This document shows, piece by piece, positions 9,865-63,518 of a stretch of 64,000 nucleotides of DNA. The stretch lies in the NCBI RefSeq assembly GCF_049510915.1, contig NZ_JBEKYN010000001.1. One strand, written 5' to 3'. The notes below the pieces were generated by a model, which saw nothing but the letters and a program-made list of their open reading frames with translations, had not been told where the DNA came from and did no database searches. Both the position numbers and the translations under genes were made by a program. The first letter of the stretch is position 1; every line of letters starts with the position of its first letter. The stretch comes from Methanoregula sp. Its GTDB lineage: Archaea > Halobacteriota > Methanomicrobia > Methanomicrobiales > Methanospirillaceae.

Positions 9865-10359
9865 ATGTCTCCTATGGCTCTTCGATCCCTCAACCTTCCC
9901 GGTGTCGGCACAAAATACGAATTCGAGACTGACAAGGGCGATACGGTCGCGATATTTTTTACAAAGACCGGGACCATCCAGATGTATACCCTCCAGAAAG
10001 GCTGCCACACGCCAAGCGCAGCCGAGATGACACCGGTGGAAGCGCGGAGGCTCGGAAATATTCTTACAGGGGCGATCATCGAGGCCGACCAGGAGAGCGT
10101 GGAGATCGCGTTCTCGGCGCTTGCCGATCTCCGGATCACCATCCACTCGTACATCATCCCCCGGGCCATCGCAGGAAAAACGATCGAAGACCTCAGGATC
10201 CGGGCAAAGACCGGGACGACCGTTATCGCGATCTCAAGGAATGACAAGAATATCATCAATCCCCCGCCATCGTTCGTGTTCGAGACCGGCGATGCCGTAC
10301 TGGTAATAGGTGAGTCAGACCAGCTCAGACTGTTCGAACGCGAGATCATGGTGGATTGA
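9865..10359 (+). CDS. KhtT-like regulatory subunit of a cation:proton antiporter (TrkA-C/RCK_C domain)
   Basis: N-terminal LNLPGVGTKYEFETDKGDTVAIF matches the KhtT/YhaT-type start. A C-terminal RCK_C-like segment is present (AGKTIEDLRIRAKTGTTVIAISR). The stop overlaps the antiporter ATG (TGATG). Start is ATG 9865; 9874 is possible. Confidence 0.8.
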   Translation: MSPMALRSLNLPGVGTKYEFETDKGDTVAIFFTKTGTIQMYTLQKGCHTPSAAEMTPVEARRLGNILTGAIIEADQESVEIAFSALADLRITIHSYIIPRAIAGKTIEDLRIRAKTGTTVIAISRNDKNIINPPPSFVFETGDAVLVIGESDQLRLFEREIMVD

Positions 10360-11506: not shown

Positions 11507-12205
11507 TCATTCAATCAATACGAGCCCTACCGAATGCACATCGCTGTGCACGATCTTCCCGTACTCCATGTTCTTGCAGGGGATCGTGACGAGGTCCCAG
11601 CCTGCATTCTTTGCCGTGGCAAAGACATCCATCCCTGCAGCCTCCATGCTGGGCCTGACCATGTCCATGTGCCGGCATTTCCGGCGCAGGCTCTCATCCA
11701 CCACGCCTTCGGCCTCCTCCGCAACACAGTGCTGGTGCTCGCACCAGATACAGGGATAGCCGCCGAAGCCGAACGCCTTGTAGAATCCGTCATAGAATGC
11801 GGTCTTCTCAAGGAAATGGACCGTCCCGTTCACCCAGAGGATCAGGTCGCGGAAATACGGGTGGAAGTCATCGGGAATGTCATCCGGCCCGAATGCCCCG
11901 TGACCCGGGACACCGTCAAAGCGGATCAGCAGCGCCGTTTTGTATTCCCCAACCATCCTCCGGGTCTCCTCCGGTGCCGGGGCATACGGCGGGCAGCCGA
12001 AGTGCTTGCCGTAGCCCTTGCAGCCATAGCGGCACTTGAACCTCACCCACTGGGCCACGACAATGTCTCCCGGATCGATCTGCTGCGCGTGTGCGCCTCG
12101 TTCCGCGGCGAGCCTGATCAGGCTCTCTATTTCACTGGCACTTTCCTGCATACCGGCCACCTCATGCAGAGGATGCCCGCCCGGATCGATAAAGTTTTCC
12201 TGCAT
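11507..12205 (-). CDS. DUF2284-type predicted metal-binding protein
   Basis: Carries CRYGCKGYGKHFGCPP plus later Cys clusters, characteristic of DUF2284. Start moved to the ATG at 12205 (MQENFIDPG). Confidence 0.7.
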   Translation of the reverse strand: MQENFIDPGGHPLHEVAGMQESASEIESLIRLAAERGAHAQQIDPGDIVVAQWVRFKCRYGCKGYGKHFGCPPYAPAPEETRRMVGEYKTALLIRFDGVPGHGAFGPDDIPDDFHPYFRDLILWVNGTVHFLEKTAFYDGFYKAFGFGGYPCIWCEHQHCVAEEAEGVVDESLRRKCRHMDMVRPSMEAAGMDVFATAKNAGWDLVTIPCKNMEYGKIVHSDVHSVGLVLIE

Positions 12206-13878: not shown

Positions 13879-14484
13879 TTAGGAGCCTGACTGGCCCTTG
13901 AGCCACTTCAGGAAGCTCGCGATCAGGTCGCTGTCCTTCAGGTCCTGGCTCTGTGCCTGGTTCACGCTGTCCCCCTGTGGCTGGTCTGACTGAGTGCCGG
14001 CCGCTCCGATCTGCCCGTTCTGGTTTGCGGATCCGTTGGTGTTGCCGTTATCCGGCGGGAGCTGGGACGGAGTCATGTTTCCGTCACTAGGCCCGGGTAT
14101 CATCCTGTTATCCGGTGCCGTCCAGTTACCGGGAACGGTCATGTTACTGTCCATCGGCGGGTGGTTAAAGGTTATGTTGCCGAATGCTGTCATGTTTCCG
14201 TCACCCGGTTCGGGCATGGGAATATTGCCCGTCATGTTTCTGAAATCCCCTCGTGGCGGACCCTTCGGTGCATTCGCGTTCCCGGTATTCTGATCTGTAC
14301 CGGCGTTTGAGTTCTGCCCGTTGTCCGGCATCATCATACCTCCCTGACTGAACCCGCCCTGTCCTTGGTTGTTACCCTGATTATTCTCTTGGCCGGGCCC
14401 TGCTGCGGCAACCATGGGTACCATAACGAAGGCTGCACACAACAGGATCACCGGTATGAATCCAATTTTTCGTGTAGTTTTCAT
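13879..14484 (-). CDS. Secreted low-complexity Gly/Asn/Gln/Pro/Met-rich protein, dense in N-glycosylation sequons
   Basis: Signal peptide MKTTRKIGFIPVILLCAAFVMVPMVAAA. About seven N-x-S/T sequons (four NMT, plus NIT, NWT, NGS) fall within roughly 75 aa. Confidence 0.6.
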   Translation of the reverse strand: MKTTRKIGFIPVILLCAAFVMVPMVAAAGPGQENNQGNNQGQGGFSQGGMMMPDNGQNSNAGTDQNTGNANAPKGPPRGDFRNMTGNIPMPEPGDGNMTAFGNITFNHPPMDSNMTVPGNWTAPDNRMIPGPSDGNMTPSQLPPDNGNTNGSANQNGQIGAAGTQSDQPQGDSVNQAQSQDLKDSDLIASFLKWLKGQSGS

Positions 14485-14739
14485 GATATATTCCCTCATG
14501 TTGGGCAACTGCGCATTTTTTCCTTGCAGTTGTCATATTCGGTCTTCTTTTAACAGTCTCTTATAAATTAGAAACTCGCATGGGGTCAATTACTTGCAAA
14601 AACGCGTCAATGATCATACCCGCGAGTTAACATTATCGCCGTTGCGGTTATCCCGCTGGCCGGCAACGAATATCGCGACAGCAAACGCGGTGCCAGAAAA
14701 GAGTTGAATGTAGTATTGTGCCATCCCGCGCGATCCGGG

Positions 14740-15021
14740 TTATTTCTTACCGGTCACCTTGATGACATGGTACCCGAACTGAGATTTTACCGGGCCGATG
14801 ACCGATCCCTGCTCTGCGGCAAACGCGGCCTGCTCGAACTCGGGGACCATCTGCCCTTTGCCGAACCAGCCGAGGTCTCCCCCGTTCTTTTTCGACGGGC
14901 AGGACGAGAAGCGCTTTGCAACTGCGGCAAAATCCTCGCCATCCTTGATTCGTTTCAGGATCCTGTTTGCATCCTCCTCTTTTGTCACGAGGATGTGGGA
15001 TGCGCGTATCTGTGTGGTCAT
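14740..15021 (-). CDS. Parvulin-type peptidyl-prolyl cis-trans isomerase
   Basis: 93 aa. ASHILV...GGDLGWFGKGQMVPEFE...GYHVIKV matches the parvulin/PinA rotamase domain. Confidence 0.9.
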   Translation of the reverse strand: MTTQIRASHILVTKEEDANRILKRIKDGEDFAAVAKRFSSCPSKKNGGDLGWFGKGQMVPEFEQAAFAAEQGSVIGPVKSQFGYHVIKVTGKK

Positions 15022-15659
15022 GTATAGTGATGGGGAGGTTTTGGGATAAAAGGGTTGAGAGATGGGTGTTGAAGTGGTGTTTCCAGCTGTTCCTTTAGGG
15101 CTGTCGCCTCCAGCAGGGGGACGGTTCCAAACTAAGAGAGCGTAGGTCCCGGGGGGATCGTTTCTCCGACGGAGGGCCGGAACATGGCGATCCCGTATGG
15201 CCGGTCTCCAGTGGAAGCGCTGTCCACGCCACTCAAAAAGTCTTATTTAATCGCGTTTTTTCCCGAAATTTCCCTTTTAATCAGGATTCAGACCTGCATA
15301 ATAGCGGGCTTCTGCGGGCAGGGTTTTTGGAGATGTCTACATGGTCATATGAGTGGGAGATCGGCCACCCGGAGGCCGCTATGAGCGTTTCTTAATTTTA
15401 CGTCGGAGAAATTGGTTTGAGGGGGGTGGGATCGACGGTGACTATTAGGCAGGAGACGCTCCTGGGGGCTGCCGCCCCCGCCGCGTGGGCGTCCCCCGGT
15501 TGCGATGATGCTGTATTACCTGTTCTCAGATATTCACCCCCGGCACCGGTAATACGGAGGCATCGCATACGCCCCCGCCCCCCTGTGGGGGCAGGGCTGG
15601 CGTAAGGGGGGTTGCATGATACCAAAAATCTTACAAGTACTGAATTACCCGGATCTTTT

Positions 15660-16300
15660 CCTGCACGAAATTTGTTTGGTCCCTGAAATTTTCCAGCATT
15701 CAGATCTCAAGGCCAAAATTTCCGGGCCGTTGCAACTTTCGCGCCGGATTTTTCCGGCCCGGGAAATTTCGCGGCCGGAAAAGTACCGGGTTTTCAAGTT
15801 CCACATTCCGACCCTTGCCGCAGGATTTACGGCGGAGATCTGTGACTGAGGTTCCGGCACGGTGCTTTTTTTAAAACTTTCGCGCCAACTTTTTTTGGCC
15901 CTGAGAATTTTCAATCCAATTTTTTTGGATTTTTCAACTTTCGACCGGAAAATTTTCCGGTTTTTGAAATTTCGAACCAAAAAATTTTGGCCGGAAAAAA
16001 TTTCGCGGCAAAAAAGCTCCGGCCGCCCGAACTTTCAAACCAAAATTTTTCCAGAAATAAAAATTTCGTGCCGTACGGACCGAGCGCGATCAGTGCGGAA
16101 AAATTTCGGGGCGAGTTATACTCACCGTCGGAGGCACCCTATTATAGTGGGGGTTTTACCCACTTTCGCGGCGATCCTCCGGAATTTTTTTCGCGCGAAA
16201 GTTTGTACGCTACATAATTTTGTGGCGTGAAAAGTCTCACGCAGGAAAAAAGTTCGGGCGCAACGCCGATTTTGGAGCAGTTCTTTTGAAAAGCCCATTA
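15660..16300. repeat. Degenerate array of about 30 A/T-tract plus CG-clamp units
   Basis: Units look like GAAATTTCGCGGCCGG, AACTTTCGCGCC, AAAATTTCCGGGCC and AAAAAATTTCGCGGC, with variable 12-25 nt spacing. Perfect palindromes are CCGGAAAATTTTCCGG (15945-15960) and TTTCGCGCGAAA (16189-16200). Every reading frame gives low-complexity K/R/F/I/S peptides. Confidence 0.8.
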
Positions 16301-16458
16301 TTATTCATCAAGAGTGGCCGGTCCAAGACTCTCATGCAGTTCCTGAGTCCCATTGTCAATGTTGGGTGAATTGAGCGCTATCTTCTCCACATCTTGCGAT
16401 AAGTGCCGCCGTCCCCGAAGGGACACCCCCGCAGCGGATCAGTGACCAAAAATGGTGC

Positions 16459-16508
16459 GAAAAACACTCCCTTGCCCCGCCGTGCCCCGGAGGGGCCCTG
16501 AGGCGGGG
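16459..16508 (-). terminator. Nested G+C-rich hairpin plus oligo-T, likely terminator of the upstream minus-strand gene
   Basis: CCCCGCC (16475-16481) pairs with GGCGGGG (16502-16508), enclosing GCCCC-GGA-GGGGC. On the minus strand the hairpin is followed by TGTTTTTCG and CATTTTTGG. A T7 run follows it on the plus strand too. Confidence 0.4.
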
Positions 16509-16558
16509 AGCTCTCGCTTTTTTTAATTGTTTCATTGGGATTCGGACGCCGGTCTAGT

Positions 16559-17971
16559 CTAAAACTCCCCGTCCTGCTCGAAGCTCCGCCCGTACCGTAT
16601 CGCGAGCTCCGCCTTGTAGAGTTCCCGGCCCAGGTATCCCGCATGGTCGAGGAGTGAGACATGCCCCCCATCAATGAGCGTATACAGTACGTCCTGCCAC
16701 CGGCTCCCCTTCATCGCCTTCCCATTGATCACCGCAACGATCTGGTCGCCTTCGATCCCGATCCGGAAGTTACCTTTCGGGTCGTAGGTGATCTCGTTCG
16801 GCATCCGCCCTGCCGGGATTACGGTCTTGTATTCAAGTGGCGGTTCGCGCCGGCGCCGTTTTTCCTTGAGCACCAGCAGGTCGACGCCGAGATCTTTGGG
16901 GTACGGCCGGTCCCGGGCAAGCACCATCATCTCGGTTGCCCGGCGCATCTCCCGGATCGAGCCCCGGGTCTTGTCCGAATGCTCGCTTGAGAAGATCACG
17001 GCCGCTCCCGTTTCCATTGCCATGCCGGCGAGCAGGGCATTTGTCCCGATCGAGTCCGCATCAAGAAGTTCGATCACGTTTCCCGCGCCAAAGAAAAGCG
17101 GGCAGCCGGAATCCTTGAACTGCCGAAGCGAGGTAACAAGCCCCGAGCCGACCGGTTGGAGGAGAGGGTCGGCAATGATGCAGGAGACACCGGCGCGCCG
17201 CGCCCGGGTAATATTTTTCGCGAGCGTGTTCCCGCCGGGCACCACGACCGCGGCCGCTCCCGCCCGGGCCACGTCCTTTCCTACAAGGGGAATATTTGTC
17301 TCCTGGAGCGAGAGCACGAGATCGGCACGAAAAAGCGCGGTCCGAATCAGGTCCGGGTCCTGCGTGTCCACGGAGAGCGGACCATTGATCTCCTCAAGTT
17401 CGGAGAACACCCGTTTCACGTCTGCCGGGGTCGCATCGAAGCCAAAGCCGAGATCGACGATATCGGCGCCGCAGGAAAAATACTGCTCCACACGATCTTG
17501 GATGATCTCCACGCGGTGGGCGTCCATGATCTCCGCGAGCACTTTTATCCGCGATGTTCCACCGATCTTTACGCCCCGGATCACAAACTCCGGTTCTGCA
17601 GTGATTTCCGCAGCCATGACGCGCTTTACCGCATCCTTTGCTTTTCCTGCGGCAAGGAAATCCTCCGCAGGAACCGTGCGCGAGAGCGGGACCTTTCCGA
17701 CAAGCGGGAGGATCCCTGCAAGATCCGCCGCGTGCCGTGGCCCCCGGTACACAGGTACCCCGGTCTCGCGCTCCACCTGCTCGAAAGAGACTGTGCACAT
17801 CCCCGATACCACAACCGCATCGTAAGCGCCCTTTGTAATCAGTTCACGGAGTGCATGGGGGGTAAGAAACGAGGCGATCTTTCCGGTCACCATCACGTCA
17901 GCGTTGAAACCGGCTGCTGCTTTTCTTACTATATCCACGGTTGCCGCACCGGTGGGGAGGAGGATACGCAT
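16559..17971 (-). CDS. Dihydropteroate-synthase-like (pterin-binding) protein, MJ0107 type
   Basis: The central pterin-binding domain reads GADIVDLGFGFDATP ... LSVDTQDP. The C-terminal DPKGNFRI...GYLGRELYKAELA resembles the DUF4346 tail of methanogen DHPS-like proteins. Start moved to ATG 17971 (MRILLPTG). Confidence 0.8.
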   Translation of the reverse strand: MRILLPTGAATVDIVRKAAAGFNADVMVTGKIASFLTPHALRELITKGAYDAVVVSGMCTVSFEQVERETGVPVYRGPRHAADLAGILPLVGKVPLSRTVPAEDFLAAGKAKDAVKRVMAAEITAEPEFVIRGVKIGGTSRIKVLAEIMDAHRVEIIQDRVEQYFSCGADIVDLGFGFDATPADVKRVFSELEEINGPLSVDTQDPDLIRTALFRADLVLSLQETNIPLVGKDVARAGAAAVVVPGGNTLAKNITRARRAGVSCIIADPLLQPVGSGLVTSLRQFKDSGCPLFFGAGNVIELLDADSIGTNALLAGMAMETGAAVIFSSEHSDKTRGSIREMRRATEMMVLARDRPYPKDLGVDLLVLKEKRRRREPPLEYKTVIPAGRMPNEITYDPKGNFRIGIEGDQIVAVINGKAMKGSRWQDVLYTLIDGGHVSLLDHAGYLGRELYKAELAIRYGRSFEQDGEF

Positions 17972-18012
17972 ACGTTTTCTTAATACCAGAGAGATAAAAA
18001 CACTATGATCAG

Positions 18013-18690
18013 ATGCTGACCTGCGATCTGCATGTGCATACAAATTTTTCGAAGGATGGCGAGAGCAGTGTCGAAGATATCCTCCGTCAGGCGGAGGCGG
18101 TCGGGCTTGACGTGATCGCCATCACCGACCACGACTGCGTCGATGGGGCAAAAAAAGCGCTCGCGTGCACCTGTTCCCTTCTTGTAATCCCCGGGATCGA
18201 GGTCTCGACCCTGCAGGGCCACCTGCTGGTGTTAGGTGTGACCGAGATTATTCCCGCGGGCCTTGACGTGCGCGAGACGGTCAGGATCGCCCGGCGCATG
18301 GGGGCGCTCGTCGTCCTCCCCCATCCGTACCATATGTGGCGGCACGGCGTCGCCCGGAGGATCCGGGCCGCCATGAAGATCGTCGACGCGGTCGAGGCCT
18401 TCAACAGCCGCTACATCGTCGGTTCGGCCAACCGCAAGGCAGGCAGGATCGCGTCACGGTTGAACAAGCCCTGTGTCGGCGGGAGTGACGCCCATAACGC
18501 ACGGTTCGTGGGCTTCGGGAGGACATATGTCGAGGCAAAACCGGATATGCAGGCCATCTTTGCGGCTATCCGGGCGGGGCGGGTTTCCTGCGGCGGGAGA
18601 AAAACGCCCCTGCGCACCTATACCCGCCAGTCGCTGAACAACACATGGAGAAGGATCAAACGTCTGACCCGGCGGTTCCGCGTCCGGTAA
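18013..18690 (+). CDS. PHP-domain metal-dependent phosphoesterase
   Basis: CDLHVHTNFSKDG ... VIAITDHD ... HPY ... GGSDAH are the PHP-family His/Asp motifs. Confidence 0.85.
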   Translation: MLTCDLHVHTNFSKDGESSVEDILRQAEAVGLDVIAITDHDCVDGAKKALACTCSLLVIPGIEVSTLQGHLLVLGVTEIIPAGLDVRETVRIARRMGALVVLPHPYHMWRHGVARRIRAAMKIVDAVEAFNSRYIVGSANRKAGRIASRLNKPCVGGSDAHNARFVGFGRTYVEAKPDMQAIFAAIRAGRVSCGGRKTPLRTYTRQSLNNTWRRIKRLTRRFRVR

Positions 18691-19481
18691 GGCTTGCATG
18701 CCGGGTCTCCTACCTGGGCACCCGGTTCTATGGCTCGCAGCAGCAGGAGTCCAGCCGCACAGTCGAAGGCGAGTTTATCGGCGCATGCCGGCGCCTCGAT
18801 CTTTTTTCTGACTGGCGGACTGCAGGTTTCTGTTCCGCCGGGAGGACCGACCGCGGGGTGCATGCCTGCGGGCAGGTCGTTGCATTCTCCACGCCATACC
18901 CGGACCGCGCCCGGCAGGCCCTCAACAGCCAGCTGCCACCTGATGCCTGGTGCACGGCCTCCGCTGAGGTGCCCGACACCTTCCATCCCCGGTACGATGC
19001 CCGGTCGCGCACGTACCGGTACTATTATTCAGAGACGGTACTTGATCCGCAGGCAATGGAAGCGGCGGCCACACATTTCCTTGGCGAGCACAACTTCTCG
19101 AACTTTGCCCGGGTGGGCGACAAGAACCCGTGGCGGAAGATCCTCGAAGCCCGGATCGGGACCGATGGCCGGTTCACGTACCTCGAAGTGAAAGCCGAAA
19201 GTTTCCTCTGGCACCAGGTGCGGTGCATGGCGGCCGCACTCTTATCCGTAGGCACGGGTGAACAGGATATGGACGGGATCCTCTTATTGCTCAACGAGAA
19301 GACGAGCCGGCCTATCCCGCCGGCGCCGGCGGAAGGGCTCGTGCTCTGGGATACGGACTGCGGGATCGCGTGGGTGCCGATTGAAGAGGGCGATCGCAGC
19401 GGCACGTACTGCACCGAGCTCCGGCGGCACCACGCGCTCATGGAGCAGGTCTGCCGGGTGCTCCGGCCGGGACTGCCGTAA
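18645..19481 (+). CDS. truA: tRNA pseudouridine synthase A
   Basis: YLGTRFYGSQQQ and the catalytic GRTDRGVHA motif. Overlaps the 3' end of the PHP gene by 46 nt. Confidence 0.9.
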   Translation: MEKDQTSDPAVPRPVRLACRVSYLGTRFYGSQQQESSRTVEGEFIGACRRLDLFSDWRTAGFCSAGRTDRGVHACGQVVAFSTPYPDRARQALNSQLPPDAWCTASAEVPDTFHPRYDARSRTYRYYYSETVLDPQAMEAAATHFLGEHNFSNFARVGDKNPWRKILEARIGTDGRFTYLEVKAESFLWHQVRCMAAALLSVGTGEQDMDGILLLLNEKTSRPIPPAPAEGLVLWDTDCGIAWVPIEEGDRSGTYCTELRRHHALMEQVCRVLRPGLP

Positions 19482-37906: not shown

Positions 37907-38375
37907 TCCCTGCCCGATAAGTGTCGTAATGTATAAACTATTTTCCTGTAATTCATTCTTATGGCCGGGGGAGTACTTTGCAGAGAATATCGATATCTTG
38001 GAACGCGGCGAACTTGACGCCCTGATCATGGGATGAGTACATCAACCCCCCCCAAATGGAGATCTGGCGTACTGATGTACAACCTCGTGAACCGTCAGTG
38101 ACCATCGGAGGGCAGGGTGGTGCGCTGGCATCATTTTTTGCCCTGCTGCATCTCCGAAGGTGTAATGGTTAATGCGCCTTTATTTAAGCAAATAAGCGCA
38201 AACCGGCCAATATTTTCGCCTATTTAATCGGAGTTAATAGTGCGCCACAATACCGAAAATACCATTGAAAATATGGCTAAATTTGATATTTCGACGTGTT
38301 TTCGACGGAAACCTTTTATATTATCAGGCGTTAACTCTCATTATCAAAACCCAAACGGGGTTTTGAGGTGTTTAA

Positions 38376-38591
38376 ATGGGACAGAAAATTGGAAAGGAAA
38401 AGATCCAGCGCGAAAAGGGATTCCTGTACTTCATTGGGAAGGACGGGTATGTCTGGGCAGCCCCGATGAAGCACAACAAGACCGGCAAGAAGAAGAAAGT
38501 CGGTACTGAAAAGATTGCCAAGGAAAAGGGCTACATGTATTACATTGGCAAAGACGGATTCGTCGCAAAAGCCAAGATGAAAAACGCATAA
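38376..38591 (+). CDS. Small basic protein made of two tandem 29-aa repeats
   Basis: The two repeats are KIGKEKIQREKGFLYFIGKDGYVWAAPMK and KVGTEKIAKEKGYMYYIGKDGFVAKAKMK, joined by a Lys-rich linker. A TATA-like TTTTATATTA is present about 55 nt upstream and GAGGTG 8 nt upstream of the ATG. Confidence 0.65.
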   Translation: MGQKIGKEKIQREKGFLYFIGKDGYVWAAPMKHNKTGKKKKVGTEKIAKEKGYMYYIGKDGFVAKAKMKNA

Positions 38592-38599
38592 ACCGAACA

Positions 38600-38668
38600 T
38601 CTTTTTATCATTGCAGTCGGATATGGTGCCGGGGCAATCCGGTACTGCCCGACTGCATATAATTTTTC
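38600..38668 (+). terminator. Oligo-T runs and a long hairpin downstream of the 71-aa gene
   Basis: A T5 run at 38602-38606 follows the stop. The stem TGCAGTCGG (38612-38620) pairs with CCGACTGCA (38649-38657), with an inner GTGCCGG/CCGGTAC pairing, followed by a second T5 at 38663-38667. Confidence 0.4.
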
Positions 38669-38968
38669 CCCTGACGGGATCGTTTCTCACAATATTTCTT
38701 ATTATGTGCATCTGTCAGGTATCATTGAATGGTAAATGTGAATCAGCAGATCTGATGCGGCATTATTGCGGATGAATAAGTGCAGACCGTTCTCGGCTAC
38801 CCTTCTGATTTCTTACCGGGGAGTTCCCTTGGTGCATAGTAATGTATGTGCAATGCATGTGCAATCTATTGTGAAACCTGATGTCTATATTTATACCCTA
38901 TTGTTTCCACTGGAAAATCAAAGAATTATGGTTTTTTTGGTTAAATACTGATAATCCACTGGATCTTT

Positions 38969-39151
38969 ATGGACAACCTGAAAGCAGAATACGAAAGGAA
39001 ATCAGATCGTATATACACGGATCACAACATCATAGTAACCGAGGAACCGATCAGCAAGATTAACTCTGAACGTCTCATGAACGGCATCTGTGGTCTCACC
39101 ATAGCGCTCATGATCCGGAACAGCCAGCCCTCCCGGCCCTGTTCATTGTAA
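38969..39151 (+). CDS. Hypothetical 60-aa protein
   Basis: ORF MDNLKAEYERKSDRIYTDHNIIVTEEPISK... lies downstream of a TATA-like ATATTTATAC (38887-38896). No family and no obvious RBS. Confidence 0.25.
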   Translation: MDNLKAEYERKSDRIYTDHNIIVTEEPISKINSERLMNGICGLTIALMIRNSQPSRPCSL

Positions 39152-39385
39152 AACCCGGTTCAGCCGGTCCTGCACTGCAGCCGCTACACTGTATAATTGA
39201 TTTCGCCGGCTATCCCGCCGAGACCGATGTGTATCGCGTGCCTGACGAAGGGTGTATGGATCATCCGGCCTGATCCCGTTCACGAAGAGCGGTTTCATGG
39301 TCGAAGTGAATGGGAACAGGCATTAAAAAAAGGATGTGGCATACTGGTGGGTGGTTTCAATTGCGCAAACCGCAATAAAAATGCA

Positions 39386-63210: not shown

Positions 63211-63518
63211 AAGATACTTTTTTCTTTGTACTCTTGGGGGCTGTCGCCCCCGCCGCACTGGCATACCCGTGTAGCGACGACTCGCGAGAAGAGAATACAG
63301 AAATTGGCAATTTGTACCAAAGCGATTCGTGTTGTTCGTTCGATTGCCCAAAAGAAACGGAAATAATCCCGTTTCTCTCGGGATTTACGAAAAAATTAGG
63401 CGTATTGAGAATCCTTGCAGCAAGTGGTTATGAGAAAAGTGCGCCAATTTTTCACTATAATTTTTACACATTCTGTCTAAACTTATCCACCCATCGTTGT
63501 GCAGCTAATGCGATATAA
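63207..63518 (+). CDS. Hypothetical small secreted Cys-containing protein
   Basis: ATGA overlap with the preceding stop. Signal-peptide-like MKDTFFFVLLGAVAPAALAYPC. The 3' end overlaps the convergent repeat-protein gene by 55 nt, which lowers confidence. Confidence 0.3.
   Translation: MKDTFFFVLLGAVAPAALAYPCSDDSREENTEIGNLYQSDSCCSFDCPKETEIIPFLSGFTKKLGVLRILAASGYEKSAPIFHYNFYTFCLNLSTHRCAANAI

Follow-up and report, generated by a model that had tools for sequence, protein, structure and literature searches.

Mosaic intergenic repeats are well described in bacteria, where pneumococcal BOX (boxA-boxB(n)-boxC) and the bacterial interspersed mosaic elements and repetitive extragenic palindromes (BIME/REP) of E. 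coli span 100–300 bp. Repeat clusters of the iteron and partition-site type are represented by sopC of F, parC of R1 and ORR1/ORR2 of the Methanococcus plasmid pURB500. Archaeal genomes are thought to be poor in structured non-coding DNA beyond replication origins, CRISPR arrays, small RNAs and miniature inverted-repeat transposable elements (MITEs). Here, we describe a gene-free island in Methanoregula sp. (NCBI RefSeq assembly GCF_049510915.1, contig NZ_JBEKYN010000001.1) that holds a composite, gene-less repeat of ~1.1 kb. Coordinates refer to the 64,000-nt stretch that was analysed, called the window. The composite (15136-~16260) comprises a conserved module X, a G+C-rich palindrome (GCrep), an array A, a linker, an array B and a tail. 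Our best explanation, to which we give a probability of roughly 0.5, is that the island is a hotspot insertion made of one copy of this modular repeat plus a second, small hairpin repeat (Rrep), and that it acts as a DNA-level protein-binding platform.

The gene-free interval is 1537 bp long (15022-16558) and extends from the start of a parvulin gene (14740-15021, minus strand; 93 aa, Pfam Rotamase) to the stop codon of a DUF4346/DHPS-like gene (16559-17971, minus strand; 470 aa). A preliminary description of this DNA had seen no convincing open reading frame (ORF) between the two genes and had noted that the ORFs called there are of low complexity or overlap on both strands, and the observation stands. 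The ORFs inside the island are short and overlap one another on both strands, and nine of them contain no Pfam family in a scan that recovered parvulin as its positive control. The longest is a translated array, and its two relatives among 5.8 billion proteins are translated arrays of the same kind. When five orthologous copies of 15150-15440 were compared, substitutions fell on the three codon positions in the ratio 34:32:31, with no periodicity and no frame kept open. Rfam 15 gave no match to the island at the gathering score (the sole match in the window is a tRNA elsewhere), and permissive searches (E ≤ 10) returned chance-level hits only, the best having E = 0.23 in the island and E = 0.14 in five other copies. 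A tRNA/tmRNA scan of the island found none.

We then compared the locus with those of related genomes, whose loci and contigs are given L-numbers. In 61 species loci that have both flanking genes, the two are separated by 43–83 bp in 39 cases and by 113–175 bp in three; the other 19 carry 0.5–8.4 kb of variable content, and the cargo in relatives includes genes for membrane or secreted proteins, a TBP paralogue and PAS/response-regulator genes. All that the "empty" sites have in common with this interval is 35–48 bp adjoining the parvulin ATG, with its TATA-like TTTTATC (GATAAAA on the plus strand, 15044-15050) situated ~26 nt upstream of the start codon (15021). This promoter region of parvulin (15022-15069, minus strand) is conserved in the empty-site genomes L011, L012 and L016. 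Because the spacer is short in most species and only the parvulin-proximal base pairs are common, the 1.5 kb constitute a hotspot insertion and not ancestral intergenic DNA. Thus, the gap is a real gene-free insertion, lineage-specific and situated at a variable hotspot.

Comparison with relatives also bears on whether the island is a dead gene. Its 1.5 kb are gene-sized, and its AT-rich sequence with repeats could equally bring to mind the conserved chromosomal oriC of the species. The preliminary description had proposed that an intact syntenic gene aligning to the interval in relatives would mark it as decayed coding sequence, and the outcome was negative: relatives have almost nothing at the site (~50 bp) or unrelated cargo genes. 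In addition, there is no conserved frame and no codon periodicity of substitutions, protein homologues were not found in the search above, and the 31-bp period of the arrays is not a multiple of 3. We therefore regard a decayed protein-coding gene as scarcely credible, and the same applies to a conserved oriC, against which the evidence on origins presented below speaks.

The insertion varies over short evolutionary distances. On the tree of the DHPS-like gene, whose protein relatives all come from Methanoregula or Methanoregulaceae metagenome-assembled genomes (MAGs), it is present in one subclade with nested empty lineages (L011, L012), and two non-sister lineages of that subclade have another module, "Y", in place of the left one. 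Contig L003 (JGI) is 100% identical to the window across 14001-18100, and near-identical strains differ in unit number within the array: array A is different in L001, and L002 lacks everything to the right of ~15900. Five metagenome contigs break off at 15111-15635, as expected of a multi-copy repeat. In L010, two Y modules in direct orientation (11817-12108 and 19210-19459) share an identical core of ~40 nt, TGGGCTCCGTTTAAAAATAAGCCCAAATCAGCCTTATTTT, and bracket ~7 kb of cargo that encodes a TBP paralogue, a PAS protein and a response regulator. This arrangement would fit integration through recombination within Y.

The composite is not limited to the parvulin/DHPS hotspot. Scanning metagenome contigs for exact matches to a 23-mer of the array identified 34 stretches, and the same modules occur in the same order in approximately 25 of them as well as in L124, L126 and L129. 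In all, the arrangement recurs in ~35 contigs besides that of the window. Copies lie in at least eight unrelated gene neighbourhoods and in either orientation with respect to their neighbours. Besides the DHPS/parvulin hotspot, the contexts include the region downstream of TfrAB-like genes (with cas6b), positions near Lon/TldD, between ribosomal-protein genes (L3/L4) and mtd, beside S-layer-like genes and beside a KaiC-like gene, among others. A single 2.09-Mb contig carries at least two matches (L092, L097). Among the copies examined, there was no recurrent neighbouring gene and no fixed orientation. A BLAST search of plasmids (PLSDB) and phages with the island gave no match, and viral contigs scanned for exact patterns from X, the arrays, Y, GCrep and the tail had none either. 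The element is distributed patchily over the host tree, where X/Y swaps and clean absences occur.

Together, these results make it very probable that the composite is a dispersed modular non-coding repeat, and neither oriC nor a dead gene. The preliminary description had offered a replication origin, a non-coding RNA (ncRNA) locus or decayed mobile or repeat DNA, and the last of these comes closest, as dispersed repeats at a hotspot; a conserved chromosomal origin is not supported. Its division of the island into three parts was essentially right, and the borders can now be refined to a hairpin block at 15451-15621, an array at 15650-16112 and a right element at 16394-16527. Within the G+C-rich left portion that it had drawn at 15022-15610, the hairpin block itself is indeed G+C-rich, but 15136-15444 is a separate conserved module. 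The central A/T array, which had been placed at 15660-16300, is far beyond chance, but it extends over 15650-16112 and is followed by a conserved tail to ~16260. We found no description of such an element in the literature on Methanoregula origins or intergenic repeats, and it is set apart from any described repeat family by its large size, by the helical phasing of its arrays and by a core that appears both ORB-like and promoter-like.

Module X (15136-15444) consists of ~310 bp of conserved non-coding DNA in which invariant short motifs surround an AT-rich centre. Twenty-four homologues were recovered by nhmmer (68–87% conserved), and motif and fold analyses were based on an alignment of 19 copies. 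The motifs include the palindrome CTCCGACGGAG (15164-15174), with an invariant CTCCGA core, the CGNCGG-related CGTCGGAGAAA (15401-15411) and TCGACGGTGAC (15432-15442), and a further invariant motif, GAGATCGGCC. Both the A/B linker and the tail contain further CGNCGG motifs related to CTCCGACGGAG. The dyad TTCC-N3-GGAA at 15204-15218 (minus strand), which reads CTTCCACTGGAGAC-CGG-CCAT-ACGGG, is similar to an origin recognition box (ORB). The euryarchaeal ORB consensus is GTTCCAGTGGAAAC-AAA-NNNN-GGGGG, with GTTCCAGTGGAAAC as the core (PMC1868953). All 19 copies of the X dyad match this core with 1–3 mismatches, and 10 of the 19 have a G-rich pentamer at the position of the G-string, where the window copy has ACGGG. 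In L009 and L099 the dyad reads GTTTCCACTGGAAAC-CGG-TTCC-GGGGG, which gives the G-string its canonical 7-nt spacing. Of only 13 instances of the strict form TTTCC-N3-GGAAA in 1.77 Mb of Methanoregula DNA, nine are in X. The dyad faces the AT-rich core, and its G-string points away from it.

These features suggest one alternative, namely that the element is an origin-like module similar to an autonomously replicating sequence (ARS), i.e. a dispersed secondary or dormant replication origin that lacks an initiator gene. Orc1/Cdc6 encoded elsewhere would bind the ORB of X, with unwinding at the AT-rich core, the A/T arrays or both. The number of X copies with an ORB-like core, the canonically spaced G-string in several of them and the orientation of the dyad all agree with such a function, as does the usual appearance of archaeal origins, which are long non-coding regions with clustered direct repeats. 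The arrays are also AT-rich (54–64% A+T in a genome of ~40% A+T). However, the ~10 kb around each of ~35 copies contain no orc1/cdc6 gene, and archaeal origins rarely lack an adjacent initiator gene. A Walker-A/B filter applied to 280–520-aa ORFs of the window and ~130 loci found only ABC ATPases; together with a Pfam search of ten large ORFs, this is consistent with the earlier remark that the window contains no Orc1/Cdc6 gene. Each element has a single ORB-like site with no inverted partner across the AT-rich core, whereas an oriC is expected to carry at least two ORB or mini-ORB sites, typically inverted around a DNA unwinding element (DUE), and the array units are unlike ORB. Nor is the position conserved, given the 43–83-bp spacer in 39 of 61 species and the empty nested sister lineages. 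Finally, cumulative G–C within the 64-kb window has no turning point at 15–16 kb, where the island lies. An origin-like module is quite unlikely in our estimation, and absence from relatives, lack of an adjoining orc1/cdc6 and lack of a skew turning point within the window speak strongly against a conserved chromosomal oriC.

A more speculative possibility, to which we likewise attach a low likelihood, is that the X-array module is a mobile chromosomal element that has no initiator gene and recruits Orc1/Cdc6 by means of its ORB, either as a transposable or dormant origin or as an Orc1-dependent architectural or segregation site. In this case, the 15.5-bp-phased arrays might serve as an assembly or unwinding platform, and a "portable origin" would be spreading within Methanoregula genomes.

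Two further observations concern an ORB-like dyad and GATC in the window. On the minus strand at 38903-38916, TTTCCAGTGGAAAC is a dyad of the same type as that of module X and matches the euryarchaeal mini-ORB consensus at 13 of 14 positions, with ~0.02 such matches expected by chance in 64 kb. It is located in a gene-poor, AT-rich 1.5-kb stretch (37907-39385) beside tRNA-Val and tRNA-Gly; a 71-aa lysine-rich ORF at 38376-38591 (plus strand) has an internal duplication (EKGFLYFIGKDGYV / EKGYMYYIGKDGFV) and no Pfam family. Clustering of GATC, as at bacterial origins, was considered for the island and rejected, because GATC is present at 9.7 per kb throughout the window. Its 621 occurrences are ~2.5 times the 1/256 expectation, which suggests either that this tetranucleotide is under selection or that there is a bias related to methylation.

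The arrays lie to the right of X and GCrep. Array A (15650-15800, plus strand) is ~115 bp shorter in this strain than in other genomes and is followed by a non-repetitive linker (15801-15874, plus strand). Array B (15875-16112, plus strand) has eight units, which start at 15875, 15906, 15936, 15967, 15998, 16030, 16061 and 16101. Its consensus, AACTTTCGAnCCGAAATTTTTTGGGnTTTTC, is also that of 86 units pooled from 22 arrays, 69 of which are exactly 31 bp in length. The conserved tail (postB; 16113-16260, plus strand), near the end of which family homology stops, contains an inverted Box-1 pair, ACTTTCGCGGCG (16162-16173) and CGCGCGAAAGTT (16192-16203). Twelve of the 18 matches to AAMTTTCRNNCC in the window (≤1 mismatch) are found within 15662-16203, 10 of them on the plus strand.

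The arrays have a regular helical register. In the window, A/T content oscillates with a period of 15.5 bp (power 8.1, compared with a shuffle maximum of 2.1), and 15.5–15.6 bp is the dominant compositional period in 16 of 16 arrays (power 3.4–8.6 vs shuffle maxima ≤3.0). In-phase A-tract curvature at 10.3 bp is ruled out, since the power is at 15.5 bp instead. Because 15.5 bp corresponds to 1.5 helical turns, neighbouring AnTn blocks lie on opposite faces of the helix and alternate blocks on the same face. The gap from the last A unit to the first B unit is 109–111 bp in 12 genomes and 92–93 bp in two, and the 15.5-bp phase is preserved across the linker in all 14. The array also contains seven runs of T≥5 on the plus strand and five on the minus strand within 490 bp, a density ~6–7 times the window average. 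Oligo-T runs terminate archaeal RNA polymerase. By this rule, an array so dense in T-runs should stop transcription from both sides, and such bidirectional stops argue against a long functional array transcript.

Transcription is nonetheless at issue, because the AT-rich centre of X (~65 bp) contains promoter-like boxes (15236-15313, plus strand) whose spacing shows no indels in 19 of 19 copies. The TATA-like box TTTTAATC (15275-15282, plus strand) begins 27 nt upstream of a near-invariant 12-mer, TAGCGGGCTTCT (15302-15313, plus strand), and the distance between the two is fixed in all 19. A mirror-image TATA-like box, TTATTTAATC (15243-15252), faces left, so that the centre seems to resemble a bidirectional archaeal promoter. 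Thus, the island could be an ncRNA locus, in which the TATA-like box drives a plus-strand RNA that starts at ~15305 near the TAGCGGGC box, takes in the right part of X together with the GC-rich hairpins, and terminates where the T-runs of the array begin; the left part of X may be covered by a divergent transcript. The fixed distance from box to 12-mer would suit such a locus, as would a small hairpin at 15384-15397 with G-C/G-U/A-U exchanges, the stable GC-rich hairpins downstream and the T-runs, which are usable as archaeal terminators. Several results argue against it. Rfam yields no family at either threshold, and a conserved small ORF was not found. A long-range RNA fold of X appeared plausible with five sequences but collapsed with 19, where RNAalifold retained just 23 pairs (-13 kcal/mol) and hardly any covariation. 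The putative start is followed after only ~20 nt by a conserved T5 run, and the arrays would be impassable to RNA polymerase on either strand if oligo-T termination applies. On balance, we think an ncRNA locus unlikely.

The 31-nt units could also be viewed as CRISPR repeat mimics, that is, as a CRISPR-derived or Cas6b-linked array without spacers, the units of which would serve as a decoy or as a Racr-like regulatory RNA that a stand-alone Cas6b binds or cleaves. In three genome types (L124, L129, L123), one paralogous copy of the element does immediately precede a stand-alone cas6b, and one unit in the window carries GGATTGAAA on its minus strand, like the 3' handle of the host repeat. Phages are known to hold solitary repeat mimics (PMC10651486). 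However, similarity of the units to the host 37-nt repeat is not above that of shuffles in L089 and is marginal elsewhere, and Rfam CRISPR-DR hits are at chance level and absent from five other copies. The units are contiguous at 31 bp without spacers, no cas gene is present in the window, and a CRISPR finder detected nothing at any of the element loci. The link to cas6b represents a single inherited locus that also has a degenerate solitary canonical repeat and therefore looks like a decayed CRISPR locus, and a second stand-alone cas6b (L133) is without the element. This explanation is very improbable. The stand-alone cas6b loci themselves (L124 8771-10663; L129 8205-10729; L123 1-1996) follow the composite copy downstream of TfrAB-like genes. 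They encode a Cas6b ~61% identical to the operon-encoded protein, with no other cas genes within 10 kb, and in L129 the degenerate solitary repeat is at 9929-9966, just upstream of cas6b.

Two hairpin repeats complete the island. GCrep (15451-15621) is a G+C-rich palindromic block of three hairpins (DNA fold -45.9 kcal/mol, z = -3.1) and is a member of a dispersed family, of which ~20 copies were counted in 1.4 Mb. In relatives, free-standing copies are ~230–260 bp long and have 12-bp terminal inverted repeats, GCTCTGTAGAAA...TTTCTACAGAGC; these repeats flank the GC-rich palindrome at L009 8252-8432, L063 4413-4588, and L048 4915-5046 and 17685-17818, among other places. Because of these termini the family is MITE-like, and judged by its sequence features (terminal inverted repeats, small size and many dispersed copies in relatives) it is a Methanoregula MITE family, from which the palindrome of the composite derives. 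The island copy, in contrast, has no terminal inverted repeats, and neither it nor the 1.1-kb composite has this full set of MITE features. A weak partial copy of the GC-rich palindrome is present at 63231-63280. Rrep (16394-16527), just downstream of the DHPS-like stop codon, is a dispersed repeat of two hairpins with nine copies at different loci. Two of its pairs show compensatory changes, and its single-sequence fold is no better than shuffles. Minus-strand T5 runs inside Rrep could act as a terminator of the DHPS-like transcript. The hairpins on the two sides of the island had been described as related, but nhmmer separates them into distinct repeat families; only the CCGTCCCC-loop-GGGGAC hairpin type, identified by eye, is common to both. 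Between the tail and Rrep, a locus-specific spacer (16261-16393) is common only to genomes that have the element at the same locus (L014, L095).

How might a gene-less element of this type function? In the protein-binding platform that we favour, X would supply a conserved winged-helix-type dyad, mini-ORB-like and possibly bound by Orc1/Cdc6, beside an AT-rich, TATA-like core that could work as a bidirectional promoter. The arrays would offer AnTn blocks every 15.5 bp (1.5 turns, with each 31-bp unit making three), and maintenance of the register across the linker would suit an oligomeric DNA-binding protein that binds cooperatively or wraps the DNA. The many oligo-T runs, present on each strand, should stop archaeal transcription arriving from left or right. 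Recombination between copies is probably how the element persists and moves, dragging or trapping cargo genes, and this would explain the variable hotspot. Rrep fills most of the remaining island. We hold the DNA-level protein-binding mechanism itself only tentatively, at somewhat less than even odds.

Several points weigh against this explanation. Taken alone, the X dyad of the window, with three mismatches to the ORB consensus, is at chance level. The phase of the arrays may be inherited rather than selected, because only two linker-length classes exist. Terminal inverted repeats, target duplications and clean borders relative to empty sites were not found for the composite, and we infer its mobility from distribution alone. 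Conservation of the X motifs could serve an RNA transcribed from the X promoter and not DNA binding, and a purely neutral, hitch-hiking repeat is an explanation that has to be kept beside the protein-binding platform.

The flanking genes call for brief comment. The ORF called mechanically for the DHPS-like gene (16559-18043; 494 aa, TTG start) is over-extended at its start, and database gene calls and homologues place the true start at MRILLPTG at 17971, giving 470 aa. On the other side of the island, 13879-14508 (minus strand) encodes an N/Q/G-rich protein of 209 aa that begins like a signal peptide and has no Pfam family; this gene is kept beside parvulin in relatives (206/201-aa genes, L001-L008).

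An element of this kind is unusual in being 1.1 kb in length, gene-less and strictly ordered; it combines an ORB-like site and a promoter-like core with ~500 bp of A/T blocks spaced at 1.5 turns. It is conserved across Methanoregula species, yet it is gained, lost and swapped between close relatives. The hosts are methanogens that dominate peat and wetland methane production, and the element accounts for the repeated breakage of assemblies in Methanoregula MAGs and for a hotspot of cargo genes there. Should Orc1 or some other abundant DNA-binding protein bind it, the element would offer a handle on the evolution of replication origins, on chromatin or domain organisation, or on transcription insulation.

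Several known systems invite comparison with the element. Like archaeal origins, with their ORB/mini-ORB sites, AT-rich DUE and orc1/cdc6 genes, it has ~1 kb of non-coding DNA with clustered direct repeats and an AT-rich segment, and its dyad resembles the mini-ORB consensus, faces the AT-rich core and in some genomes has the G-string. Unlike those origins, it has no adjoining initiator gene, a single ORB-like site without an inverted partner and repeat units unrelated to ORB, and it is multi-copy, patchy and non-syntenic, being missing here in most relatives. With plasmid iterons and partition sites it shares two clusters of ~5–8 same-strand repeats spaced at integral helical turns (31 bp = 3) and adjoining AT-rich DNA. 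In contrast to these sites, it is chromosomal and multi-copy with no match in PLSDB, and its 15.5-bp register sets successive A/T blocks on opposite faces of the helix; no rep or par genes were present among the flanking ORFs examined. Solitary CRISPR repeat units (RNA anti-CRISPRs; PMC10651486) resemble the arrays in their regular ~30-nt units and palindromic centre, and one paralogue lies beside cas6b, but the arrays have no spacers and no robust similarity to the host repeat, and the window has no cas genes. MITEs compare with the free-standing family of the GC-rich block, which is ~230–260 bp long, has 12-bp terminal inverted repeats, is dispersed and breaks assemblies; the window copy of GCrep differs in having no terminal repeats, and the composite in having no detectable terminal inverted repeats or target duplications. 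The similarity to BOX and BIME is one of kind without homology. Like these bacterial mosaic repeats, the composite is gene-less, multi-copy, dispersed and intergenic, with a fixed module order, variable unit number, hairpin parts and differences between strains. It departs from them in its archaeal host, in its size (~1.1 kb vs 100–300 bp), in the lack of any sequence relationship, and in its helically phased A/T arrays and ORB-like, promoter-like core.

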